This document shows, in pieces, positions 54,989 to 63,613 of a stretch of DNA of 64,000 bases. Each line of letters starts with the position of its first letter. The stretch's first letter is position 1. The translations under genes were made by a program, and so were the position numbers. Origin of the DNA: Deltaproteobacteria bacterium. Its GTDB lineage: Bacteria > JAGRBM01 > JAHCIT01. The stretch spans positions 248,001 to 312,000 of the forward strand of contig JAHCIT010000005.1 of the NCBI GenBank assembly GCA_026129095.1, written 5' to 3'. Under the pieces are notes generated by a model, which was not told the DNA's origin, made no database searches, and saw only the letters and a list, made by a program, of their open reading frames with translations.

Positions 54989-55148
54989 TGGCTGTTATTC
55001 ATGATCGTCACGGACGACCAGCGCAAGCCGGACCTGTCCAACCCCGTGACAAACTGACTTTTGCTAAATAGTATTTCAAAAGGTAGGAATGGCAGCGTAG
55101 CGATTACGAGTGATCCTAGGGGCGGTCGGCAATGCAGCCTGCTAATTG

Positions 55149-56420
55149 ATGGTCAAGATGAAGCCACGAGCAGCAGATTTCTACCGAATTAATCCGCCCG
55201 GCGTTTGTTCTCGCCGAAATAGATTAACTGCCGTCGATCTTTTTGCAGGCGCAGGCGGCATCTCGCTTGGGTTGATGAATTCTGGGTTCGATGTGCTTTT
55301 CGCGTCTGATATTTCCGGTCCGTGTATGGCGACGCATACGCTAAATCTTCCGAATATTAAATTCCAGCAAACCGATATCAGGTCTCTATCAGGCGCGAAA
55401 ATATTGCGTCAGACTGGTTTAGGTCGGGGCGAGCTGGACCTATTGATTGGTGGGCCACCGTGCCAAGGTTTTAGTATCCTCGGACAACGTGTCCTTGAAG
55501 ATCCTCGTAACCGCCTGTTTCAAGAGTTTGTTCGCATTGTTGGCGAACTGAAGCCCCGCGTCGCCGTGATCGAAAATGTCCCGGGCCTCGCTACCCTGAG
55601 CAAAGGTGTGCTTTTGAGTAGAATCGGGGCAGCCTTCGGAAGATTGGGTTATCGTGTGGAATGCGCGGAGCTTTTAGCTGCCCAATATGGTGTTCCCCAG
55701 ATGCGTTGGAGAATGTTTTTCGTCGCATGGCGGTCAGATTTCGGCCCGCGAACTGCGGGTTTCCCCGTCCCAACTCATGGGCGATTGGGAATTGGTGATC
55801 TAGTCCCAAATCGAAAGATTACAGACGTCCAATCCAAAGGCTTCCTGTCAATTTGGGATGCAATTAGTGATCTTCCGCCAATTGAGAGCGGCGAAGTCGG
55901 AACGATATATACGAATAAACCCAAATCGCCGTATCAAGTAGCCATGCGAGCAAACTGCAAACGCGCCGAATTGCACAATCACTATGCTCCAAAATTGTCA
56001 CCCATAAATCTCCAGAGAATTCAGACGCTCCAACCCGGCCAAGACTGGCGAGACTTACCACGAGAATTACTCCCTCCGGGGATGCAGCGCGCGCTACGAA
56101 AGGACCACACTCGTCGTTTTAGACGGATGAAGTGGGATGGCATTGCGCGCGCCATCATCACTAGATTTCGCGATCCCAAATCGGGGGAGTACATCCACCC
56201 CGACCAAACCCGCACGATAAGCATTCGGGAGGCTGCTCGTATTCAATCGTTTCCAGATTGGTTCGTGTTTGAAGGGAACTATACCGATCAGTACGATCAG
56301 ATCGGGAATGCCGTTCCGCCACTATTGGCACGCGCTGTAGGAACTGAAATCCAACAGGCTCTTGCAGCAGCGAGTGTTGAGCGTATAGTGCCAAAATCAC
56401 GATATAAAATTCCTGCGTGA
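55149..56420 (+). CDS. dcm: DNA (cytosine-5) methyltransferase
   Basis: DLFAGAGG, GGPPCQGFS, ENVPG, YGVPQMRWR, REAARIQSFPD, QIGNAVPP. Confidence 0.96.
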   Translation: MVKMKPRAADFYRINPPGVCSRRNRLTAVDLFAGAGGISLGLMNSGFDVLFASDISGPCMATHTLNLPNIKFQQTDIRSLSGAKILRQTGLGRGELDLLIGGPPCQGFSILGQRVLEDPRNRLFQEFVRIVGELKPRVAVIENVPGLATLSKGVLLSRIGAAFGRLGYRVECAELLAAQYGVPQMRWRMFFVAWRSDFGPRTAGFPVPTHGRLGIGDLVPNRKITDVQSKGFLSIWDAISDLPPIESGEVGTIYTNKPKSPYQVAMRANCKRAELHNHYAPKLSPINLQRIQTLQPGQDWRDLPRELLPPGMQRALRKDHTRRFRRMKWDGIARAIITRFRDPKSGEYIHPDQTRTISIREAARIQSFPDWFVFEGNYTDQYDQIGNAVPPLLARAVGTEIQQALAAASVERIVPKSRYKIPA

Positions 56421-57538
56421 TGAAGAAACCAAGCAAAGCCGCTCGTGGAAATTATGTTAGCGAATGGTTCGGCCATCGCGTATTTCCGAATGTCGTAGCC
56501 GGGAAAAAGAGTTTGAAAGAGCAGCAAGCAGAGTCGTGCCCCTTCTTAACCGCTGCAATTGGTGAGGTCAGAACATGTATCAAAAGTAGTGCTGCGCGAG
56601 GTGTGTGCACGATCAACACTGCTACTAGTGGTACCAGAATGGATTGGCTGGTCTGCCCATACCGAGCTCTTGATCCGTCACTTCTTGAAAGTGCGGTCAG
56701 ACGGCTATTCGGATTTCGCGAAAGCCAAGCTGTATATATCATTCCTGCCATTCGGTTAGAGGCAGAGAAAATCAGAGAAGAGATAGGCCAAAGGCTCCGA
56801 TCAGGAGATCGGGTATTTATTTATTTTGACGAAAAACTAGGCGGCGAACTAAGTATACCCGCAACTGCGAAGTCGCCAGAGTTTTCCTTCGACGTCACAA
56901 TAATCGAAATCGAATTATCAGATGGTCGGCCGCATGTTGGCCGTTTTGGCGTTATTGAAATTCAGACCATGGATTTCCACGGCTCATATAGAAAGGCCGT
57001 TGCTAATCTCAAGGACGCTCTTCGGCTGCACCCAAAAGATTTTGCTACATCATTACAGACCAATCAAAACTGGTTGAGTGAGGATATTGAAGGTCCAAAT
57101 ATAGCCAATGTGTTTAAACGAACATTCTATCAAATGATGTTTAAGTTTCAGCTCGGTCAAAATCCACGTTGTGCAGGATGTGTCCTTGCCGTTCCACTGT
57201 CGGTTTGGGAAAGTTGGCAGCGTCACTTGGGACAACCAGAGCTGAGATCAGAGCCAGATGGGACATTCAGTCTGTTCCCAAGTGGTGGTGCCCGACCCCC
57301 CATTGTACCGGCTTGGATATACGTATTTGATATAAGTTCTATGAGTCGAACATCGCCCAGCCCACTAGTAATTTCAAAGATTATTGCTACCGATGCGACA
57401 TCTATTTCTCACTATGCACTTCAGGTCGCACCCGCAGCAGCATTAGAAAATATAGCATCTGCAACGGGTATGTTGACGCTTTTGGCACGCCGTATAAGCA
57501 GGCTTTGGCCGGAGTTAGGTACAACGTTAACGGTGTGA
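56417..57538 (+). CDS. NotI-family type II restriction endonuclease
   Basis: EWFG, four Cys (CPF, C-IK, GVC, VCPYR), FD...IEIQ catalytic motif; coupled to the methyltransferase. Confidence 0.8.
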   Translation: MMKKPSKAARGNYVSEWFGHRVFPNVVAGKKSLKEQQAESCPFLTAAIGEVRTCIKSSAARGVCTINTATSGTRMDWLVCPYRALDPSLLESAVRRLFGFRESQAVYIIPAIRLEAEKIREEIGQRLRSGDRVFIYFDEKLGGELSIPATAKSPEFSFDVTIIEIELSDGRPHVGRFGVIEIQTMDFHGSYRKAVANLKDALRLHPKDFATSLQTNQNWLSEDIEGPNIANVFKRTFYQMMFKFQLGQNPRCAGCVLAVPLSVWESWQRHLGQPELRSEPDGTFSLFPSGGARPPIVPAWIYVFDISSMSRTSPSPLVISKIIATDATSISHYALQVAPAAALENIASATGMLTLLARRISRLWPELGTTLTV

Positions 57539-58177: not shown

Positions 58178-58816
58178 CTAATGCAAAAATTCATTAAATT
58201 TGAAGATGAAATTTCCGACCGATGCGACTTTGCTTAAGGGTTCGAGCAGTCTTGAAATAATACCGGCGTCGGGCTTCGTCTTAGAGAACTGCCGTTCAAT
58301 TTCATCCAAGTCGCCCAAATGCTCACGTCTCTCAACGTCGGTCAGATTTGCGTCACTGCTTAGAGCGTTCTTTGCGGCCCTAATTAGGGTGGCCAAAGTT
58401 TCTGAATCGACTGGACTGGGAAGGGTTTGGCTAATTGAGCTGTGCTTTCCCGTGAAAGCTATCTGGTTACTATTTCCATGCACGTTTACGACATTTACTT
58501 CGTGCTGGACATTATTGCCATCGTCGCTGCCGTCACGGTTTGATTCGACAAACATTCGTCCCTTCCCGGTCAGTTCCGCGTGAACCATTCCCTTGGGAAG
58601 AAATAGGCATTTGGCTATGCCTTGATCTTGCAGAGCATGCCCAGCGTCGATGAACCATCCGGAATCTGGCACGTCTATATCGAGAGCTCCCGCAATTTCC
58701 GGAAGCGGATAGTAGTGTGAACCCTTCTCTTGATCGAGGAGATAAAGCTGCTCAACAAGTTGGTTGAAGAATTCTGTGAAGGTAACCCGTGCCATAGAAG
58801 TTTTTTCCTGCGTCAT
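58178..58816 (-). CDS. Hypothetical protein (possible N-terminal winged helix, low-complexity linker, helical C-terminus)
   Basis: 212 aa ORF; LTGKG wing-like motif; divergent from the MBL gene. Confidence 0.6.
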   Translation of the reverse strand: MTQEKTSMARVTFTEFFNQLVEQLYLLDQEKGSHYYPLPEIAGALDIDVPDSGWFIDAGHALQDQGIAKCLFLPKGMVHAELTGKGRMFVESNRDGSDDGNNVQHEVNVVNVHGNSNQIAFTGKHSSISQTLPSPVDSETLATLIRAAKNALSSDANLTDVERREHLGDLDEIERQFSKTKPDAGIISRLLEPLSKVASVGNFIFKFNEFLH

Positions 58817-59122
58817 ACACCTGAAATCCAGTTATTCGAGTTTCGAAGCTGAACTGTCCCAGATTACAAGATTGCTGATGGAGCCTCTATATTTCCCCAT
58901 AATATCACATGGTTATATTTTTTATTTTTCGTACCCTTGACGTTTTTTGAGCGATAGCCATTTTAAGCAATGAGGGCTTTGGGGCTAAATCATTTGGTTT
59001 GGCCGACGTTGTGTTTTGGGAAGGCGTGAGCCTCAAAGACTTCATTCTTCGATCTCTTTTCGGCAACTCCTTTCCAGAATGGCACGATGTTGAATGCTGA
59101 AGTGGCATTTAAGGGAGTTACC

Positions 59123-60226
59123 GTGACCTCCGAAGACTTGTATCCGAAAAGCAATGTAATGCGTGTCCTTTTTCTGTACGTTGGGCAGGGAGAGGCAACC
59201 CTTTTTCTCGTACCTGACGGCCTTGGTGGACACATCTCCATGCTTGTGGACTGCAACTATTCGCCGTCACTCAACGGAATCGACCTGCCATGCTTTTTAG
59301 CGGATACGCTCCCTAAGAATTCCAAGGGCAGACCGGTTCTCGACTTGTTCGTTAATACGCACCCTCATTCGGATCATCTTGGTGGCCTCAAAGCTCTACG
59401 GCAGGCCATAGAGATTCAGAACGTCTGGCACAGCGGTCATAATCCTGGCCGGGAACACGGTGATGCCTATAAAGAGCTGCAAACCCTGATGAAAGAAGTG
59501 GAAGACCGAAAGGGAAAGGTTGAAGAACTTCAGGGATCCCGGACGGCGGTCAAATTCGGAGCCGCTGAAGTTCATATCCTGGCGCCAGCCGAATACGTGA
59601 AAGATGAAATCGCCGACGAAAAGGCCGAAACACGCTATCAGCGTATACATGAGCATTGTGCGGTGCTTCGGGTAAGATACGGCTCCGCCGGCAAAAAAGT
59701 AGGTGTCCTGGTGACCGGGGATGCCGATAAAGCCGCATGGGAAAATCACATCACCGATTACCACGGTGCAAAAGAAGAGAACCGGCTAAAATCGGAAATA
59801 CTTAGTGCTTCCCACCACGGGTCCAGAACGTTTTTCAAAACGGATGAGGACGATGACAAGCCGTACACCAAACATCTCGATTACATCCAGCCAGAACGCT
59901 TGGTAATTTCCGCGCCGGCCCAGAAGGACAGTCCTCACGATCATCCGCACGATGATGCTCTTGAACTTTATCAAACATACATCGAAACGGACTGCATTCA
60001 CCATATGGGAGCCGGGCGTTGGTCATTTCAACTCGATGTTGATGACAAAGGGGATTACGAACTTGAAGAGGACCGAGGTAAAATTGCGGATGAATACCCG
60101 GCTTCGGATGATGATGAAAAATCAGACAAAGGCGGCGGCAGTGGCGGCACAAAAGCTACCATCGCCAGCACGCCCATCAGCCGTGTCGGCAAAACCCATC
60201 CAATGGGGATGCCAAGCGAGCGGTAA
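59123..60226 (+). CDS. ComEC/Rec2-like metallo-beta-lactamase fold hydrolase with a disordered C-terminal tail
   Basis: YVGQGEA, LVDC, THPHSDHLGG, TGDA, SHHGS, HPH; GTG preceded by AAGGGAG (alternative ATG at 59087). Confidence 0.9.
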   Translation: MTSEDLYPKSNVMRVLFLYVGQGEATLFLVPDGLGGHISMLVDCNYSPSLNGIDLPCFLADTLPKNSKGRPVLDLFVNTHPHSDHLGGLKALRQAIEIQNVWHSGHNPGREHGDAYKELQTLMKEVEDRKGKVEELQGSRTAVKFGAAEVHILAPAEYVKDEIADEKAETRYQRIHEHCAVLRVRYGSAGKKVGVLVTGDADKAAWENHITDYHGAKEENRLKSEILSASHHGSRTFFKTDEDDDKPYTKHLDYIQPERLVISAPAQKDSPHDHPHDDALELYQTYIETDCIHHMGAGRWSFQLDVDDKGDYELEEDRGKIADEYPASDDDEKSDKGGGSGGTKATIASTPISRVGKTHPMGMPSER

Positions 60227-62613
60227 TGTTCCCAGGCATTCCATGGTTCGTTGAGCATCCTGATCTGTATCGATCGGAGGCTAGTGAACTTCGAGAAAAG
60301 TTCCCCGAAATGACGGAGATGCCGGAACCGGATATTTCGGGGCGTGTCTACTTCTATGGCGCTTTGAAATTCCACTCCGGACGAACGACAACTTCCGTCA
60401 ATATCGTTTTGTATTATCCAGCCGATTTTCCGTATTCGTCGCCCGCTGTTATCCCGGTAGAAAAATTGCCCCACGAGTTGGGGCAAGAAGCACCGCTTCT
60501 GCTTGATCGCTCGAATATCCGTTTCTTTTCCGCCCGTCACCAAATGGCTAGCGGAATGATTTGTCTTTACGAAGCAGATGGCCGCCCTTGGCACCATCTT
60601 GCCGTGACGGGTGTTGAAGCACTCCACAGGGCCAGGAAATGGCTACGTCACGCAATACGAGGGCAATTCCCTAGCGATCTCGATGGCGATCATGCAGAAC
60701 TCTCAGAACATTACCAGGCAACTGGTGACGTATTGGTCGGCCCGGCAATGCATCGAACTAATCTAGGGGCTCCGAAGCGGTTCCTAGCCGTTCAACTTCG
60801 ACCTAAGCAGCAACTATTCGCGGTAACTCATGTCCAATATGAACACGGATGGGCAGATGATCGAGCCGTCTTTAATAGACTAATGCCTGAAGCATTTGGG
60901 AACGAGCAGTGGTGGGATTCCGCAGGGACGACAGAAAATCTGGATATTTTGCGGGTGAAACCGGACTGTCTGGTCGGCGAGTGCTACCCCATTTCCGGGG
61001 AGCCTCGGCCATATCGATCAGCTTCCGAATTCGCCCAAACGCTATATCCGGAAAAGGGCGCCGCAGCCATTGAAGCTCTTCAAGAAAAATATGCTGTTGA
61101 GCGGACCTGCCGGGAAAAGGTGGTATTGCCTATTCAATATCCAGGCAGGGCAGGCAGTTGGGAATGGCTATTTATCGAATTGCAAATAAAAAACACTGCT
61201 CCTGAACGAATCAAAGCTCCCACAGGGGAGATGGTCCCTCTCTTAGATTTAAGTCCTTCATCCCGAACAGCACTCGCTACTGCTGTCCCAACAGTATTAC
61301 GCCAACATGATTTACAGCGCAGAAGTTTGGAGCTTCGCAATGGTGGCCGAGCCCAGCCGGACATTAATAACTGGACGGTATCGCTATTTGGAGCCGGAGC
61401 CATCGGCTCCGAAACGGGCGTGCTTCTTGCCAAAGCGGGAATCGGGAAACTGAAGATATGGGACAACCAAATCCTTTCAGCCGGGAATACCATTAGGCAT
61501 CTATCCGGGCTCTTTGGTGTCGGGTTTCCCAAGGCGTCGCTGACGGAACTGATGGTTAAGCAGCACAATCCGCATTGTGAGGTGGCGTCAACTTTTGGGG
61601 ATGCCCTCGATGCGATAACGAGAAACCCGAATGATGCATGGGGATCCAATGCGACTATCAGCACCATCGCCGATGATGGTGTCGAGTTGCGGTTGAATAA
61701 GCTGGCAGTATCGAGCGGCAAGACGGTTTACTATTTGCGCGCCCTCAGGTCCGGTTCGGTAGGTCAACTGCTGCGGGCTATACCTGGCAGTGGTGCGTGT
61801 CTGGAATGTCTGGCGCATTATCTGCAAGATGAGACGCCGGATCCAAAATCGTTCCCAATGGATGAAATCCCCGGAGAAATTGTCGCTCGTGAATGCGGTA
61901 GACCCATACTTGCGGCAAGTGCAATGGATCTTACGACCGTAGCGGCATTTGGCAGCAGACTTATTCTTGGCGATCTGGCGCAACCGTCTGAAAACAATTT
62001 ATGGGTTTGGACGACCGATGGTATCCCAGGACATTCGGAACTGGCCAAGCCATTTTCGATGGCCTCGTCGTTTTTACCTCCGCACCCAGCATGTTCAGTG
62101 TGCCGCCCCAAGGCGATTGGCAATGTTCATTTTCCAAAGGACGTTCAAGCTCGAATGATAGATTTGGCTCGGCAACATGAGCCGAACGAGACGGGCGGTA
62201 TGCTTATCGGCTATCGGAAGGGACAGGACGTATTTGTTCTGGAGGCAAGTGACGCGGGACCAAAGGCCACCAGCATGCCGTCACGGTTTGAGAGAGATGG
62301 GGGTTACAGTGAAACGTATCTAATGGATGCCGTGCGGCGGAATGGCAACGGTATTGATTATGTCGGTGATTGGCACAGTCACCCCGGATATCCGGCAGTT
62401 CCTAGCCCAAGGGACGCGGTTTCTATGCATGATATTGCGGCAGATCCGGGATACCGTACCGATTACCCGATAATGGCGATAGTCGGCCTGCCCGATAGCG
62501 GGAAATCGGGTGATCCTGAATTCACCTGTTACTGCTTTCCCAAGGGGAGCAGTAGTTACAGCGTCGGTGTGAGGATCACCGATTCTGCTCCAGTATCACG
62601 AACAGGCGATTAA
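60226..62613 (+). CDS. E2-like + ThiF/E1 + JAB (Mov34/MPN) fusion protein
   Basis: YPADFPYSSP...HQ..SGMICLY (E2); GAGAIGS, D...GNTIRH, CLEC, ECG, CSVC (E1); NETGG...GDWHSHP...PSPRD (JAB). Confidence 0.9.
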   Translation: MFPGIPWFVEHPDLYRSEASELREKFPEMTEMPEPDISGRVYFYGALKFHSGRTTTSVNIVLYYPADFPYSSPAVIPVEKLPHELGQEAPLLLDRSNIRFFSARHQMASGMICLYEADGRPWHHLAVTGVEALHRARKWLRHAIRGQFPSDLDGDHAELSEHYQATGDVLVGPAMHRTNLGAPKRFLAVQLRPKQQLFAVTHVQYEHGWADDRAVFNRLMPEAFGNEQWWDSAGTTENLDILRVKPDCLVGECYPISGEPRPYRSASEFAQTLYPEKGAAAIEALQEKYAVERTCREKVVLPIQYPGRAGSWEWLFIELQIKNTAPERIKAPTGEMVPLLDLSPSSRTALATAVPTVLRQHDLQRRSLELRNGGRAQPDINNWTVSLFGAGAIGSETGVLLAKAGIGKLKIWDNQILSAGNTIRHLSGLFGVGFPKASLTELMVKQHNPHCEVASTFGDALDAITRNPNDAWGSNATISTIADDGVELRLNKLAVSSGKTVYYLRALRSGSVGQLLRAIPGSGACLECLAHYLQDETPDPKSFPMDEIPGEIVARECGRPILAASAMDLTTVAAFGSRLILGDLAQPSENNLWVWTTDGIPGHSELAKPFSMASSFLPPHPACSVCRPKAIGNVHFPKDVQARMIDLARQHEPNETGGMLIGYRKGQDVFVLEASDAGPKATSMPSRFERDGGYSETYLMDAVRRNGNGIDYVGDWHSHPGYPAVPSPRDAVSMHDIAADPGYRTDYPIMAIVGLPDSGKSGDPEFTCYCFPKGSSSYSVGVRITDSAPVSRTGD

Positions 62614-63248
62614 CTGGTTGGAAGATTTAGGAATTGGACAAAAAGTTCGCGGGCGTAATAGCAGCCGAAACGATGCATTCGGGCTAGAGCTATCGCAACT
62701 AGTACCCCGAAAAACAACACAGGCCTCCAGCTTCCTGGCCCCTTCTCCCATAACAACAGGGCGGCCACGACCAATAAACTGGCGGCGATTCCACGGCACA
62801 GACCATAGTTGCCATTGAATCGTTCGATTCGCTCTAGTCGATTAGCCGCGCCAATTGCCGCATGTATCTGCCGGGTAATCGGCGTCCATTCGGCTGCCGC
62901 AATTTTGGATAATTCGACCGGTTCATTTCGGCCGAGTAATTTCTGGAGTCGTGTTTCGAGTAATCGCTGCTGATCGGGGCTTATCAAGTTCCCACGACCG
63001 GAAATAACCCAGTCGGTAGGCATTCCTTTGAAGATTTTCCAATGTAACGTTTCAAGCCTATTTCCTATGAACTGAACCAAATGGCCAGCGGCGTACGAAA
63101 GAATGATAAATACCCCAAGATCACCAAACGACGCTCCCGATGCTTTCGCTATCAGGGAGATCGATGGATAGATCAACGATGCGCCGAATATAGTGATTGC
63201 GCCTGGCGCTAAAATGCCCGCGAATTCGTAAAAGTCGAATTGCTTCAC
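62610..63248 (-). CDS. Hypothetical four-TM membrane protein
   Basis: FDFYEFAGILAPG N-terminal TM pair, soluble middle, C-terminal TM pair. Confidence 0.75.
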   Translation of the reverse strand: MKQFDFYEFAGILAPGAITIFGASLIYPSISLIAKASGASFGDLGVFIILSYAAGHLVQFIGNRLETLHWKIFKGMPTDWVISGRGNLISPDQQRLLETRLQKLLGRNEPVELSKIAAAEWTPITRQIHAAIGAANRLERIERFNGNYGLCRGIAASLLVVAALLLWEKGPGSWRPVLFFGVLVAIALARMHRFGCYYARELFVQFLNLPTS

Positions 63249-63613
63249 GTTTGTGCATCCTCAAAGCGTATCTTTGGACAGGTTTTCCGCTTACGCAACT
63301 TTAGCCCGCTCACATTCCCCTTTCGGGTAGAAGGATAAAAAGAGATTCGAACCGTTGGGACATTTAAGCCCTCAGACTCCGGCATAGTGCCCCAGCCCCT
63401 ATCGCTTTTTGCGCCGGGGACCGGGATAAAACCGTCCACATAAACATAACCAGTGATACAAGAACTACCTAACCCCAGTAACTAACTAGCAATAACCCAC
63501 ATATCTAAAATCTCTTGGTCATTTTGCCCCTACCCCCTAATGTGGCGGGATTGTGCGCCAACCTTAACCGAGTAAAATGCAGACCTGAGACATGGCAAGG
63601 AGCCAATAGTTAT

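Follow-up and report, generated by a model that had tools for sequence, protein, structure and literature searches.

The 64,000-nucleotide stretch analysed here (the window; Deltaproteobacteria bacterium, assembly GCA_026129095.1, contig JAHCIT010000005.1, positions 248,001 to 312,000 of the forward strand) carries near its right end a locus that is probably an anti-phage module of the 6A-MBL type, from a divergent sister family of the named system. A ComEC-like metallo-beta-lactamase-fold (MBL) protein with a tail glycine, Gly374, is encoded in a coupled pair with a single-chain E2-E1-JAB protein, a convergent gene encodes a Csx27-like membrane protein, and the module would work by Cap2/Cap3-like conjugation. 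What was observed, and what this reading builds on, are the folds, the catalytic residues, the linkage of the genes, and the conservation and co-variation of the tail among related loci. Its features, in window coordinates, are as follows.

59087-60226, plus strand: MBL gene, longest open reading frame (ORF), 379 amino acids (aa) (P0001); MBL-fold, ComEC-like metallo-hydrolase (Pfam Lactamase_B, 2e-6), probable DNase
60116-60223, plus strand: disordered C-terminal tail of the MBL protein, residues 344-379 (pLDDT <50 in the model)
60226-62613, plus strand: E2-E1-JAB fusion gene, 795 aa (P0002), a 'Cap2-Cap3 fusion' in a single chain
60235-60684, plus strand: E2-like UBC/UEV-fold domain, residues 4-153, candidate catalytic C113
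60685-61320, plus strand: Cap2/ATG7-type linker domain, residues 154-365, by structural match to Cap2
61321-62121, plus strand: E1/ThiF-type adenylation domain, residues 366-632, with GxGxxG, two CxxC and candidate C557
62122-62553, plus strand: JAB/JAMM metallopeptidase domain, residues 633-776, with an intact E...HxH(x7)SxxD
62610-63248, minus strand: Csx27-like membrane protein gene, 212 aa, four predicted transmembrane segments, convergent to the fusion gene

The two ORFs of the pair lie where a preliminary description of this DNA had placed them, coupled by the TAATG overlap that it had pointed out, in which the MBL stop codon TAA (60224-60226) shares a base with the fusion start codon ATG (60226-60228). 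The fusion stop codon is in turn overlapped by 4 nt by the convergent Csx27-like gene. The true MBL start is probably the GTG at 59123, giving 367 aa, which is favoured because AAGGGAG stands 5 nt upstream of it and the database form has 367 aa. An E2-E1-JAB protein adjoining an MBL was tabulated as operon type 6a by Iyer, Burroughs and Aravind in 2006 (Table 1, PMC1779556), and the window shows this architecture, with E2, E1 and JAB in one protein and an adjacent MBL gene. The preliminary description had therefore over-rated the novelty of the pair, since the operon type has been in print since 2006 and NCBIfam names an anti-phage 6A-MBL system. According to the available text of a review citing van den Berg et al. 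2024, the anti-phage activity of a Pseudomonas aeruginosa 6A-MBL has been confirmed experimentally (PMC13276650), and a preprint, in the part at hand, lists 6A-MBL among jumbo-phage defences (10.1101/2025.09.30.679545). No mechanistic study of 6A-MBL was found in the literature searched, which excluded van den Berg et al. 2024 and Makarova et al. 2019.

Both proteins have a 6A-MBL model of NCBIfam as their best match, but both scores are below the cut-offs: the fusion protein matches NF058523 (6A-MBL_cap2_3) over 111-741 at E 7.7e-40 and 137.1 bits (cut-off 320), and the MBL protein matches NF058524 (6A-MBL_enzyme) at E 2e-22 and 79.8 bits (cut-off 220). NF058523 is also the top model for 18/18 fusion relatives, with a best E of only 5.5e-50, weaker than expected at the cut-off, whereas the canonical fusions of five genomes score 615-657 bits on it; in these five loci the MBL has 389-416 aa and the fusion 750-764 aa. 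Profile-profile alignment (hhalign) connects the two groups: an alignment of 18 fusion sequences matches the five canonical ones with 99.67% probability (E 2.2e-25) over 564 columns (99-743 against 115-750) at 20% identity, with C113 on an invariant Cys of the canonical fusions, and the MBL profile matches the five canonical MBLs with 97.8% probability (E 9.2e-13) over 282 columns. In a quick tree of 60 MBLs, from which L006 (partial MBL), L110 (identical to L109) and L143 (broken MBL frame) were left out, the five canonical sequences are set apart by a very long branch (support 100), and the window copy groups (support 98) with copies from metagenome-assembled genomes of Pseudomonadota, Myxococcota and Acidobacteriota. 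Sequence comparison thus places the window pair in a large environmental sister family, distant from canonical 6A-MBL.

The order E2, linker, E1, JAB proposed in the preliminary description holds for the fusion protein. Pfam recognises ThiF at 373-544 (2.9e-15) and Prok-JAB at 637-755 (1.3e-15), the best PADLOC matches are the CBASS models 'E1-E2' (4.9e-27) and 'JAB' (5.7e-23), the NCBIfam Cap3 model matches the JAB part (6.4e-11), and the E1 profile matches UBA5 (2e-12) and Cap2 (1.3e-11) in the PDB; the E1 and JAB folds are assigned from sequence profiles of this kind. The fusion alignment comprised P0002 and 17 of its 19 strong relatives (31-49% identity), P0019 (646 aa) and P0021 (530 aa) having been dropped as shorter. 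All the catalytic residues named beforehand are present in the protein and invariant across these 18 rows, as part of a larger invariant set: S102, R104, H105, Q106, M107, G110 and C113 in the E2 block; G389, G391, G394, D413, R424, K436 and E556-C557-G558 in the E1 domain, together with the CxxC pairs C525/C528 and C623/C626; and E655, H717-S-H719, S727 and D730 in the JAB domain. The two CxxC pairs probably form a Zn site. In Cap2, according to the available text of 10.1101/2022.03.31.486616, the E2 Cys is C109 and the E1 Cys, C548, lies on the crossover loop; because of its position between the CxxC pairs and the parallel with Cap2 C548, C557 would sit on the E1 crossover loop as well.

The N-terminal part was modelled with AlphaFold2 (residues 1-365; pLDDT 91.0, pTM 0.86) from 38 rows, the window copy and 37 of the 43 loci with full-length matches, at 15-35% identity, and C113 is invariant in all of them. 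The preliminary description had made its reading depend on a UBC fold here, and the model does have one, with residues 4-153 matching UEV/E2 structures at Z 8.6-10.3 (VIA-align; Tsg101 UEV 10.3, UFC1 9.3, UBE2S 9.2). Foldseek ranks E. cloacae Cap2 first and second for the whole 1-365 model (7tqd_B, 6.8e-8; 7to3_A, 1.5e-7), and residues 10-365 are colinear with Cap2 7to3_A 7-363 (Z 12.3, rmsd 4.9, 271 residues aligned). The region of about 230 aa that had been left unassigned is thus present as described and can now be identified as a Cap2/ATG7-type linker. In agreement with this, Atlas look-alikes of the N-terminal part are Cap2_linker (0.91) and Prok-E2_A/B clusters (0.90-0.91), and 25 of the 26 PDB matches of its profile at E<=10 are E2/UEV chains, all of them weak (best E 0.0092), which align at a YPxxxPYxxPxV strand motif. 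Foldseek ranks 3-50 for the same model include many MPN/JAB-fold chains, among them Rpn11, CSN5, BRCC36 and eIF3f/h (E 1e-4 to 5e-3, TMq ~0.2); these matches, at fusion residues ~154-365 (60685-61320), may mean that the Cap2-type linker resembles the MPN fold, or they may be an artefact.

The E1 domain might alternatively modify the MBL C-terminus without any protein conjugation, leaving a stable adenylate or a thiocarboxylate or performing MccB/PaaA-like tail chemistry. Its profile also matches MoeB, ThiF, MccB and PaaA, and two CxxC pairs are found in MoeB/ThiF-type enzymes too. We nevertheless regard this as very unlikely: the E1 domain is preceded in the same chain by an intact UBC-fold E2 domain whose Cys is invariant, it is accompanied by no rhodanese or sulfur-relay domain, and the E2-linker part is structurally closest to Cap2, which is a proven ligase.

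The MBL protein carries the HxHxDH motif (H92, H94, D96 and H97) named in the preliminary description, and this motif, as well as H188, D212 and H243/H244, is invariant across 42 aligned MBLs. Its profile matches the MBL domains of ComEC in the PDB (2.6e-10 to 6.9e-7), and the predicted model (pLDDT 87.5) has the ComEC beta-lactamase-like domain 9ic4 at Foldseek rank 1 (E 3.2e-19, TMt 0.80), about eight orders of magnitude better than the second entry. The match to the ComEC model TIGR00361 is confined to profile positions 442-652, and the channel and OB domains of ComEC are absent; the protein is a stand-alone, soluble-looking one of 379 aa, outside ComEC proper. The ComEC MBL domain is a metal-dependent nuclease, according to the available text of PMC8579336. 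Taken on profile and model likeness, the window MBL is probably a ComEC-like nuclease, and its activity would be that of a DNase.

The C-terminal tail of the MBL protein consists of an acidic, Gly-rich linker followed by a conserved end, HPMG. In the window copy the end reads THPMG, with P372-M373-G374 at 60200-60208, and an extension MPSER (60209-60223) follows. The invariance of P372-M373-G374 in the MBL alignment (A2) is an artefact of the choice of rows; the unbiased figure is that [RHK]P[MLIVAF]G followed by 0-8 residues ends the tail in 97 of the 120 best MBL homologues, exactly at the Gly in 26 of them. In the six genome loci that have a full-length fusion relative, the MBL terminates in SRPMG with 0-2 residues after it, and in the five canonical 6A-MBL loci it terminates in PRAG with 0-4 residues after it. 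Such a tail has the pattern of a ubiquitin-like precursor, and it likewise matches the disordered tail of the CD-NTases (cGAS/DncV-like nucleotidyltransferases) of the type II cyclic oligonucleotide-based antiphage signalling system (CBASS); the substrate of Cap2 has a disordered tail whose conserved end enters the E1 site, according to the same available text on Cap2 (10.1101/2022.03.31.486616). As stated in the preliminary description, no gene of a ubiquitin-like family, CD-NTase or cyclase was found when neighbours were scanned with Pfam, PADLOC and NCBIfam.

The metagenome scan with the MBL profile, in which the ORFs of 80 loci were searched with a hidden Markov model (HMM) of the fusion protein, links the tail to the partner. 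Of 50 loci with at least 2400 bp past the MBL, 37 have a fused partner, 10 a split one, one a weak N-terminal match and two none, so that an E1 partner stands beside the MBL in 47/50; with 300-2400 bp the start of a partner was found in 19 of 20 loci and nothing in one, and 10 loci with <300 bp were too short for the test. The MBL is also directly upstream in 6/6 genome loci with a full-length fusion relative. With a fused partner the tail ends in xMG plus 0-9 residues in 35/37 loci, the remaining two having PMG plus 12 residues and PNG. Among the split-partner loci PMG occurs in 0/10, and 8/10 end exactly at a Gly or Ala, mostly as [KR][YF]G. The partner-less MBLs of L119 and L147 are without a Gly tail. 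An extension past the Gly is present in 27/37 fused-type against 2/10 split-type loci (Fisher p = 0.004, a descriptive value for related loci). Disorder, a conserved Gly with a variable extension, and co-variation of tail and partner lend indirect support to the proposal of the preliminary description that the MBL itself is the conjugated substrate.

The split loci themselves (L112, L126, L140, L141, L152, L154, L157, L163, L166 and L169) encode the MBL, an E2-E1 protein of ~600-700 aa and, as a protein of its own, a JAB of 119-310 aa; the MBLs end in [KR][YF]G, RYA or PFA, with the extension mostly absent, and nine of the ten form one group in the quick MBL tree. The MBLs of L119, L147 and L156, which have no recognisable E1 partner or PMG tail, are nested within fused-partner clades; the L119 MBL follows an S24/LexA-like gene, the L147 MBL follows a patatin gene, and the L156 MBL has the tail PYG plus 2 residues and a DUF4145 gene nearby. 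Some systems adjoin a second, shorter MBL-fold gene, which at L103:7648-8547 and L127:4041-4931 is PADLOC PDC-M48B (8e-133 and 9.7e-145), and two canonical 6A-MBL loci have an extra MBL-looking gene (L036:8723-9784 and L072:9470-10378, judged from N-terminal sequences alone). L069 and L084, with E1-JAB matches, a weak upstream MBL match (1.7e-9 and 9.1e-9) and no Csx27-like gene, may represent another MBL-linked E1/JAB type. When viral contigs were scanned with the MBL profile, 5 loci came up, of which 3 match well. A search of 40 other genomes, including 3 from the same family and 2 from the same order, did not detect the MBL.

A predicted complex of the E1 domain (355-640) with MBL 1-374, a check that had been proposed for the pair, scored 0.49 (runs 0.49, 0.51 and 0.30), against 0.00 for the best of three controls; at least 43% of contacts agree between runs, and partner pLDDT is at least 80. 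Of 157 solved complexes 116 reach the pass mark, and of 215 mismatched pairs 2 do; among these passes scores <=0.60 belong to only 18 of the 157 solved complexes, but to both mismatches. The prediction gives weak support to the pairing, and its pass may reflect likeness only, because the like complex Cap2-CdnD has already been solved.

Read together with Cap2 and Cap3, these features suggest a cycle in which the JAB domain would trim the MPSER extension and expose Gly374, the E1 domain would adenylate Gly374, and the acyl group would pass through a thioester on C557 and a thioester on C113 to a target amine. Conjugation could activate or relocate the nuclease, upon which phage and/or host DNA would be degraded, and the JAB domain could also reverse the conjugation. 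The Csx27-like membrane protein may be a partner in this cycle, as an anchor, target, sensor or second effector. For the window copy, processing, adenylation, conjugation, DNase activity and defence are all proposed by analogy.

The same trimmable extension could instead belong to a protease-gated nuclease that involves no conjugation, in which JAB cleavage activates an MBL proenzyme and the E1/E2 part is only a sensor or scaffold. The difference between 27/37 fused-partner and 2/10 split-partner MBLs fits such a device. ComEC-like defence MBL nucleases described in the available text of PMC12799240 are proenzymes opened by a linked protease, and the window MBL weakly matches the defence MBL models LmuA (2.5e-9), RTasMBL, PDC-M48B and Avs1a (PADLOC 0.018; NCBIfam 1.9e-4). 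On the other hand, the adenylation motif, both candidate Cys residues and the E2 block are invariant among relatives of 31-49% identity, and C113 in 38 N-termini at 15-35%; the invariance of these E1/E2 features argues for catalysis over a scaffold role, and the conserved feature of the MBL is its terminal Gly, as in E1 substrates. Protease gating alone therefore seems to us an unlikely account of the locus.

The pair is not alone. The preliminary description had taken it for a two-gene system, and the coupled pair is real, but this view was incomplete, since the Csx27-like gene lies within 1.5 kb in 30/37 complete loci (whole system, with at least 900 bp on both flanks) and at 2 kb in one more. 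In an all-against-all comparison of flanking ORFs, relatives of the 62610-63248 product abut the system in 13/19 related loci. An HMM of this family matched 63/92 loci, including all five canonical 6A-MBL loci (5/5 within ~2 kb) and split-type loci, and the gene is kept in L119 and L156, which have no partner or a weak one. As controls, 68 other genome loci with other E1/JAB contexts gave 0 matches, and within the 64-kb window the HMM found only its own gene. Of the 30 nearby copies, 18 stand upstream and 6 downstream on the strand of the system, 2 stand downstream and 1 upstream on the other strand, and 3 overlap the frame limits used. On this conservation the Csx27-like gene is a third component of the module.

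The hydropathy profile of the 62610-63248 product has four peaks, and the family alignment (14 rows, 14-37% identity) has invariant P15, N145, Y148 and R152. The window copy matches no Pfam or NCBIfam family and no Csx27 model (NF040557, cut-off 65 bits, not reached). The NCBIfam Csx27 model matches 4/12 family members weakly (18.6-27.2 bits, 3.5e-6 to 1.5e-3, all under the cut-off of 65 bits), one relative matches the PADLOC Csx27 model at 6.8e-13, and the Atlas neighbours of the product are unnamed clusters. The title of Makarova et al. 2019, which reaches us through citing papers, ties Csx27-family membrane proteins to competence-like components and a ubiquitin network, and the proposal of that work as relayed in the available text of PMC8209922 and PMC7642515 is a membrane channel for transport or degradation of single-stranded DNA. 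Beside the Csx27-like gene stands a 64-aa ORF (63245-63439, minus strand) without family match, the last 4 nt of which coincide with the first 4 nt of the Csx27-like gene. Upstream of the MBL gene on the opposite strand lies another 212-aa ORF (58178-58816, minus strand), with weak PADLOC PDC-M14B matches (1.7e-6) and a product that is not homologous to that of the Csx27-like gene.

One specific form of the conjugation scheme would make use of this membrane protein: the fusion protein would ligate the trimmed Gly of the nuclease to the Csx27-like protein or to other proteins at the membrane, so that a DNase is stationed where phage DNA enters and a competence machine becomes an entry barrier. 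The fusion of the JAB domain in this lineage would then be explained by the synthesis of the nuclease as a precursor, which needs trimming before activation. In this particular form the scheme is rather improbable.

The locus lies in a low-GC island put at ~13 kb, in which the GC content drops from 0.55-0.59 to 0.47-0.53, from ~55000 to ~7 kb past the end of the window. The island starts with a type II C5 cytosine methylase gene (55146-57538; PADLOC MTase_II 9.4e-112, Pfam DNA_methylase 1.8e-63), whose end is overlapped by a 373-aa ORF that has no Pfam, PADLOC or NCBIfam match and may encode the cognate restriction enzyme. The island also contains a gene for a DnaD/HTH_36 protein and, on the same contig ~4.6-5.9 kb past the window end, a gene for a T5orf172 (3.5e-13)/Sel1 repeat protein (L090:6598-7929, minus strand), which is accompanied by large ORFs without family match (645, 476 and 296 aa). 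Most island genes match nothing in Pfam, PADLOC or NCBIfam, and a tRNA scan of 40000-64000 found none. Across 19 related loci, nearest neighbours match PADLOC at E<=1e-10 in 12/65 cases against 0/30 control ORFs from window positions 1-45000 (Fisher p = 0.016, for loci that are not independent and a single control genome), and the families involved are HmaA, DrmB, REase_I, AbiEi, capP, PDC and HEC.

This context bears on whether the module defends at all, or is a membrane-linked device for DNA uptake, degradation or modification, or serves a mobile element. The linkage of a ComEC-like MBL with a Csx27-like protein of four transmembrane segments, the 2019 proposal of a channel for single-stranded DNA, and the DnaD/HTH_36 and T5orf172 genes of the island would suit a function of that kind. 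The anti-phage activity of canonical 6A-MBL and its jumbo-phage listing, as cited above, speak against it, as do the enrichment of defence neighbours in the related loci and the stand-alone MBL without the ComEC channel or OB domains. A role outside defence is accordingly of low probability in our estimate.

Several observations weigh against an anti-phage conjugation module of the 6A-MBL type. With regard to the family, both NCBIfam cut-offs are missed widely (137.1 against 320 and 79.8 against 220 bits), identity to the canonical proteins is only ~20% (fusion) and ~26% (MBL), and the first ~100 residues of the fusion protein are unaligned to the canonical profile and give no Pfam Prok-E2_A match at E<=0.1. 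With regard to the mechanism, the strict tail motif is missing in 23 of the 120 MBL homologues (most of these have xMG variants or are truncated), the strength that the predicted E1-MBL complex adds is slight, and a JAB domain fused to its own ligase would undo the conjugation unless it were regulated. With regard to the locus, the membrane gene cannot be co-transcribed with the pair in the window, because it lies on the opposite strand, and it was undetected in 6/37 complete loci, among them L008 and L009, which are close relatives. A scan of 58700-63500 found 2 promoter-like and 7 terminator-like sites, where shuffles give 4.7 and 5.0, with no excess, and the pair has just one recognisable defence gene at its flanks in the window.

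The architecture, the defence role and the link to a membrane protein were already in print, and what the sister family adds are the rules of tail and partner. The terminal Gly tail, the variable extension, the partner-dependent motif and the membrane partner are handles on the mechanism of 6A-MBL, and the variable extension predicts a JAB-dependent maturation. Current curated models miss the sister family, and its loci are therefore annotated simply as 'ThiF family' and 'MBL fold'. Should the nuclease act as its own ubiquitin-like modifier, this system and CBASS together would indicate that different effectors can be armed by re-using bacterial E1-E2 enzymes.

Compared with canonical 6A-MBL, the window family has the same gene order, an MBL followed by an E2-E1-JAB triple-module protein, the same type of MBL tail, with a conserved Gly and a short variable extension, and a Csx27-like membrane gene nearby. 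The two differ in the tail motif ([RK]PMG in the window family, PRAG in the five canonical loci), in the MBL motif (HPHxDH against HPDKDH) and in the two CxxC pairs of the E1 domain, which are not among the canonical invariant columns. The membrane protein resembles Csx27, the type VI-B1 CRISPR accessory, in its four predicted transmembrane segments, in the matches of its relatives to Csx27 models and in its linkage to a ComEC-like MBL and to E1/E2/JAB, as the title of Makarova et al. 2019 has it, and differs in that the window copy itself matches no Csx27 model.

The closest parallel in enzyme structure is type II CBASS. Here the E2 domain, the ATG7-like linker and the E1 domain have the same fold and order (7to3_A, Z 12.3), the candidate C113 and C557 of the window fusion correspond to C109 and C548 in the available description of Cap2, and the substrates of both would have a disordered tail with a conserved end. 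Unlike in CBASS, no CD-NTase, cyclase or nucleotide-activated effector was found among the window neighbours scanned, the presumed substrate is the nuclease effector itself, the JAB domain is fused to the ligase, and most substrates of the window family extend past the reactive Gly. The MBL nucleases of Hachiman, AVAST, Lamassu and 'canu', as far as the available text of PMC12799240 describes them, share with the window a stand-alone ComEC-like MBL just upstream of a peptidase-domain gene; in the window, however, the peptidase is a JAB metalloprotease fused to E1/E2 rather than a trypsin-like or caspase-like one, and the conserved regulatory element is the C-terminal Gly tail. In Bil and Bub (PMC11601596), finally, a JAB protease likewise processes the precursor C-terminus and/or removes conjugates, and E1 and E2 act on a C-terminal Gly, but there the Gly belongs to a separate beta-grasp ubiquitin-like protein, whereas in the window no gene for such a protein was found and the MBL tail appears to serve in its place.

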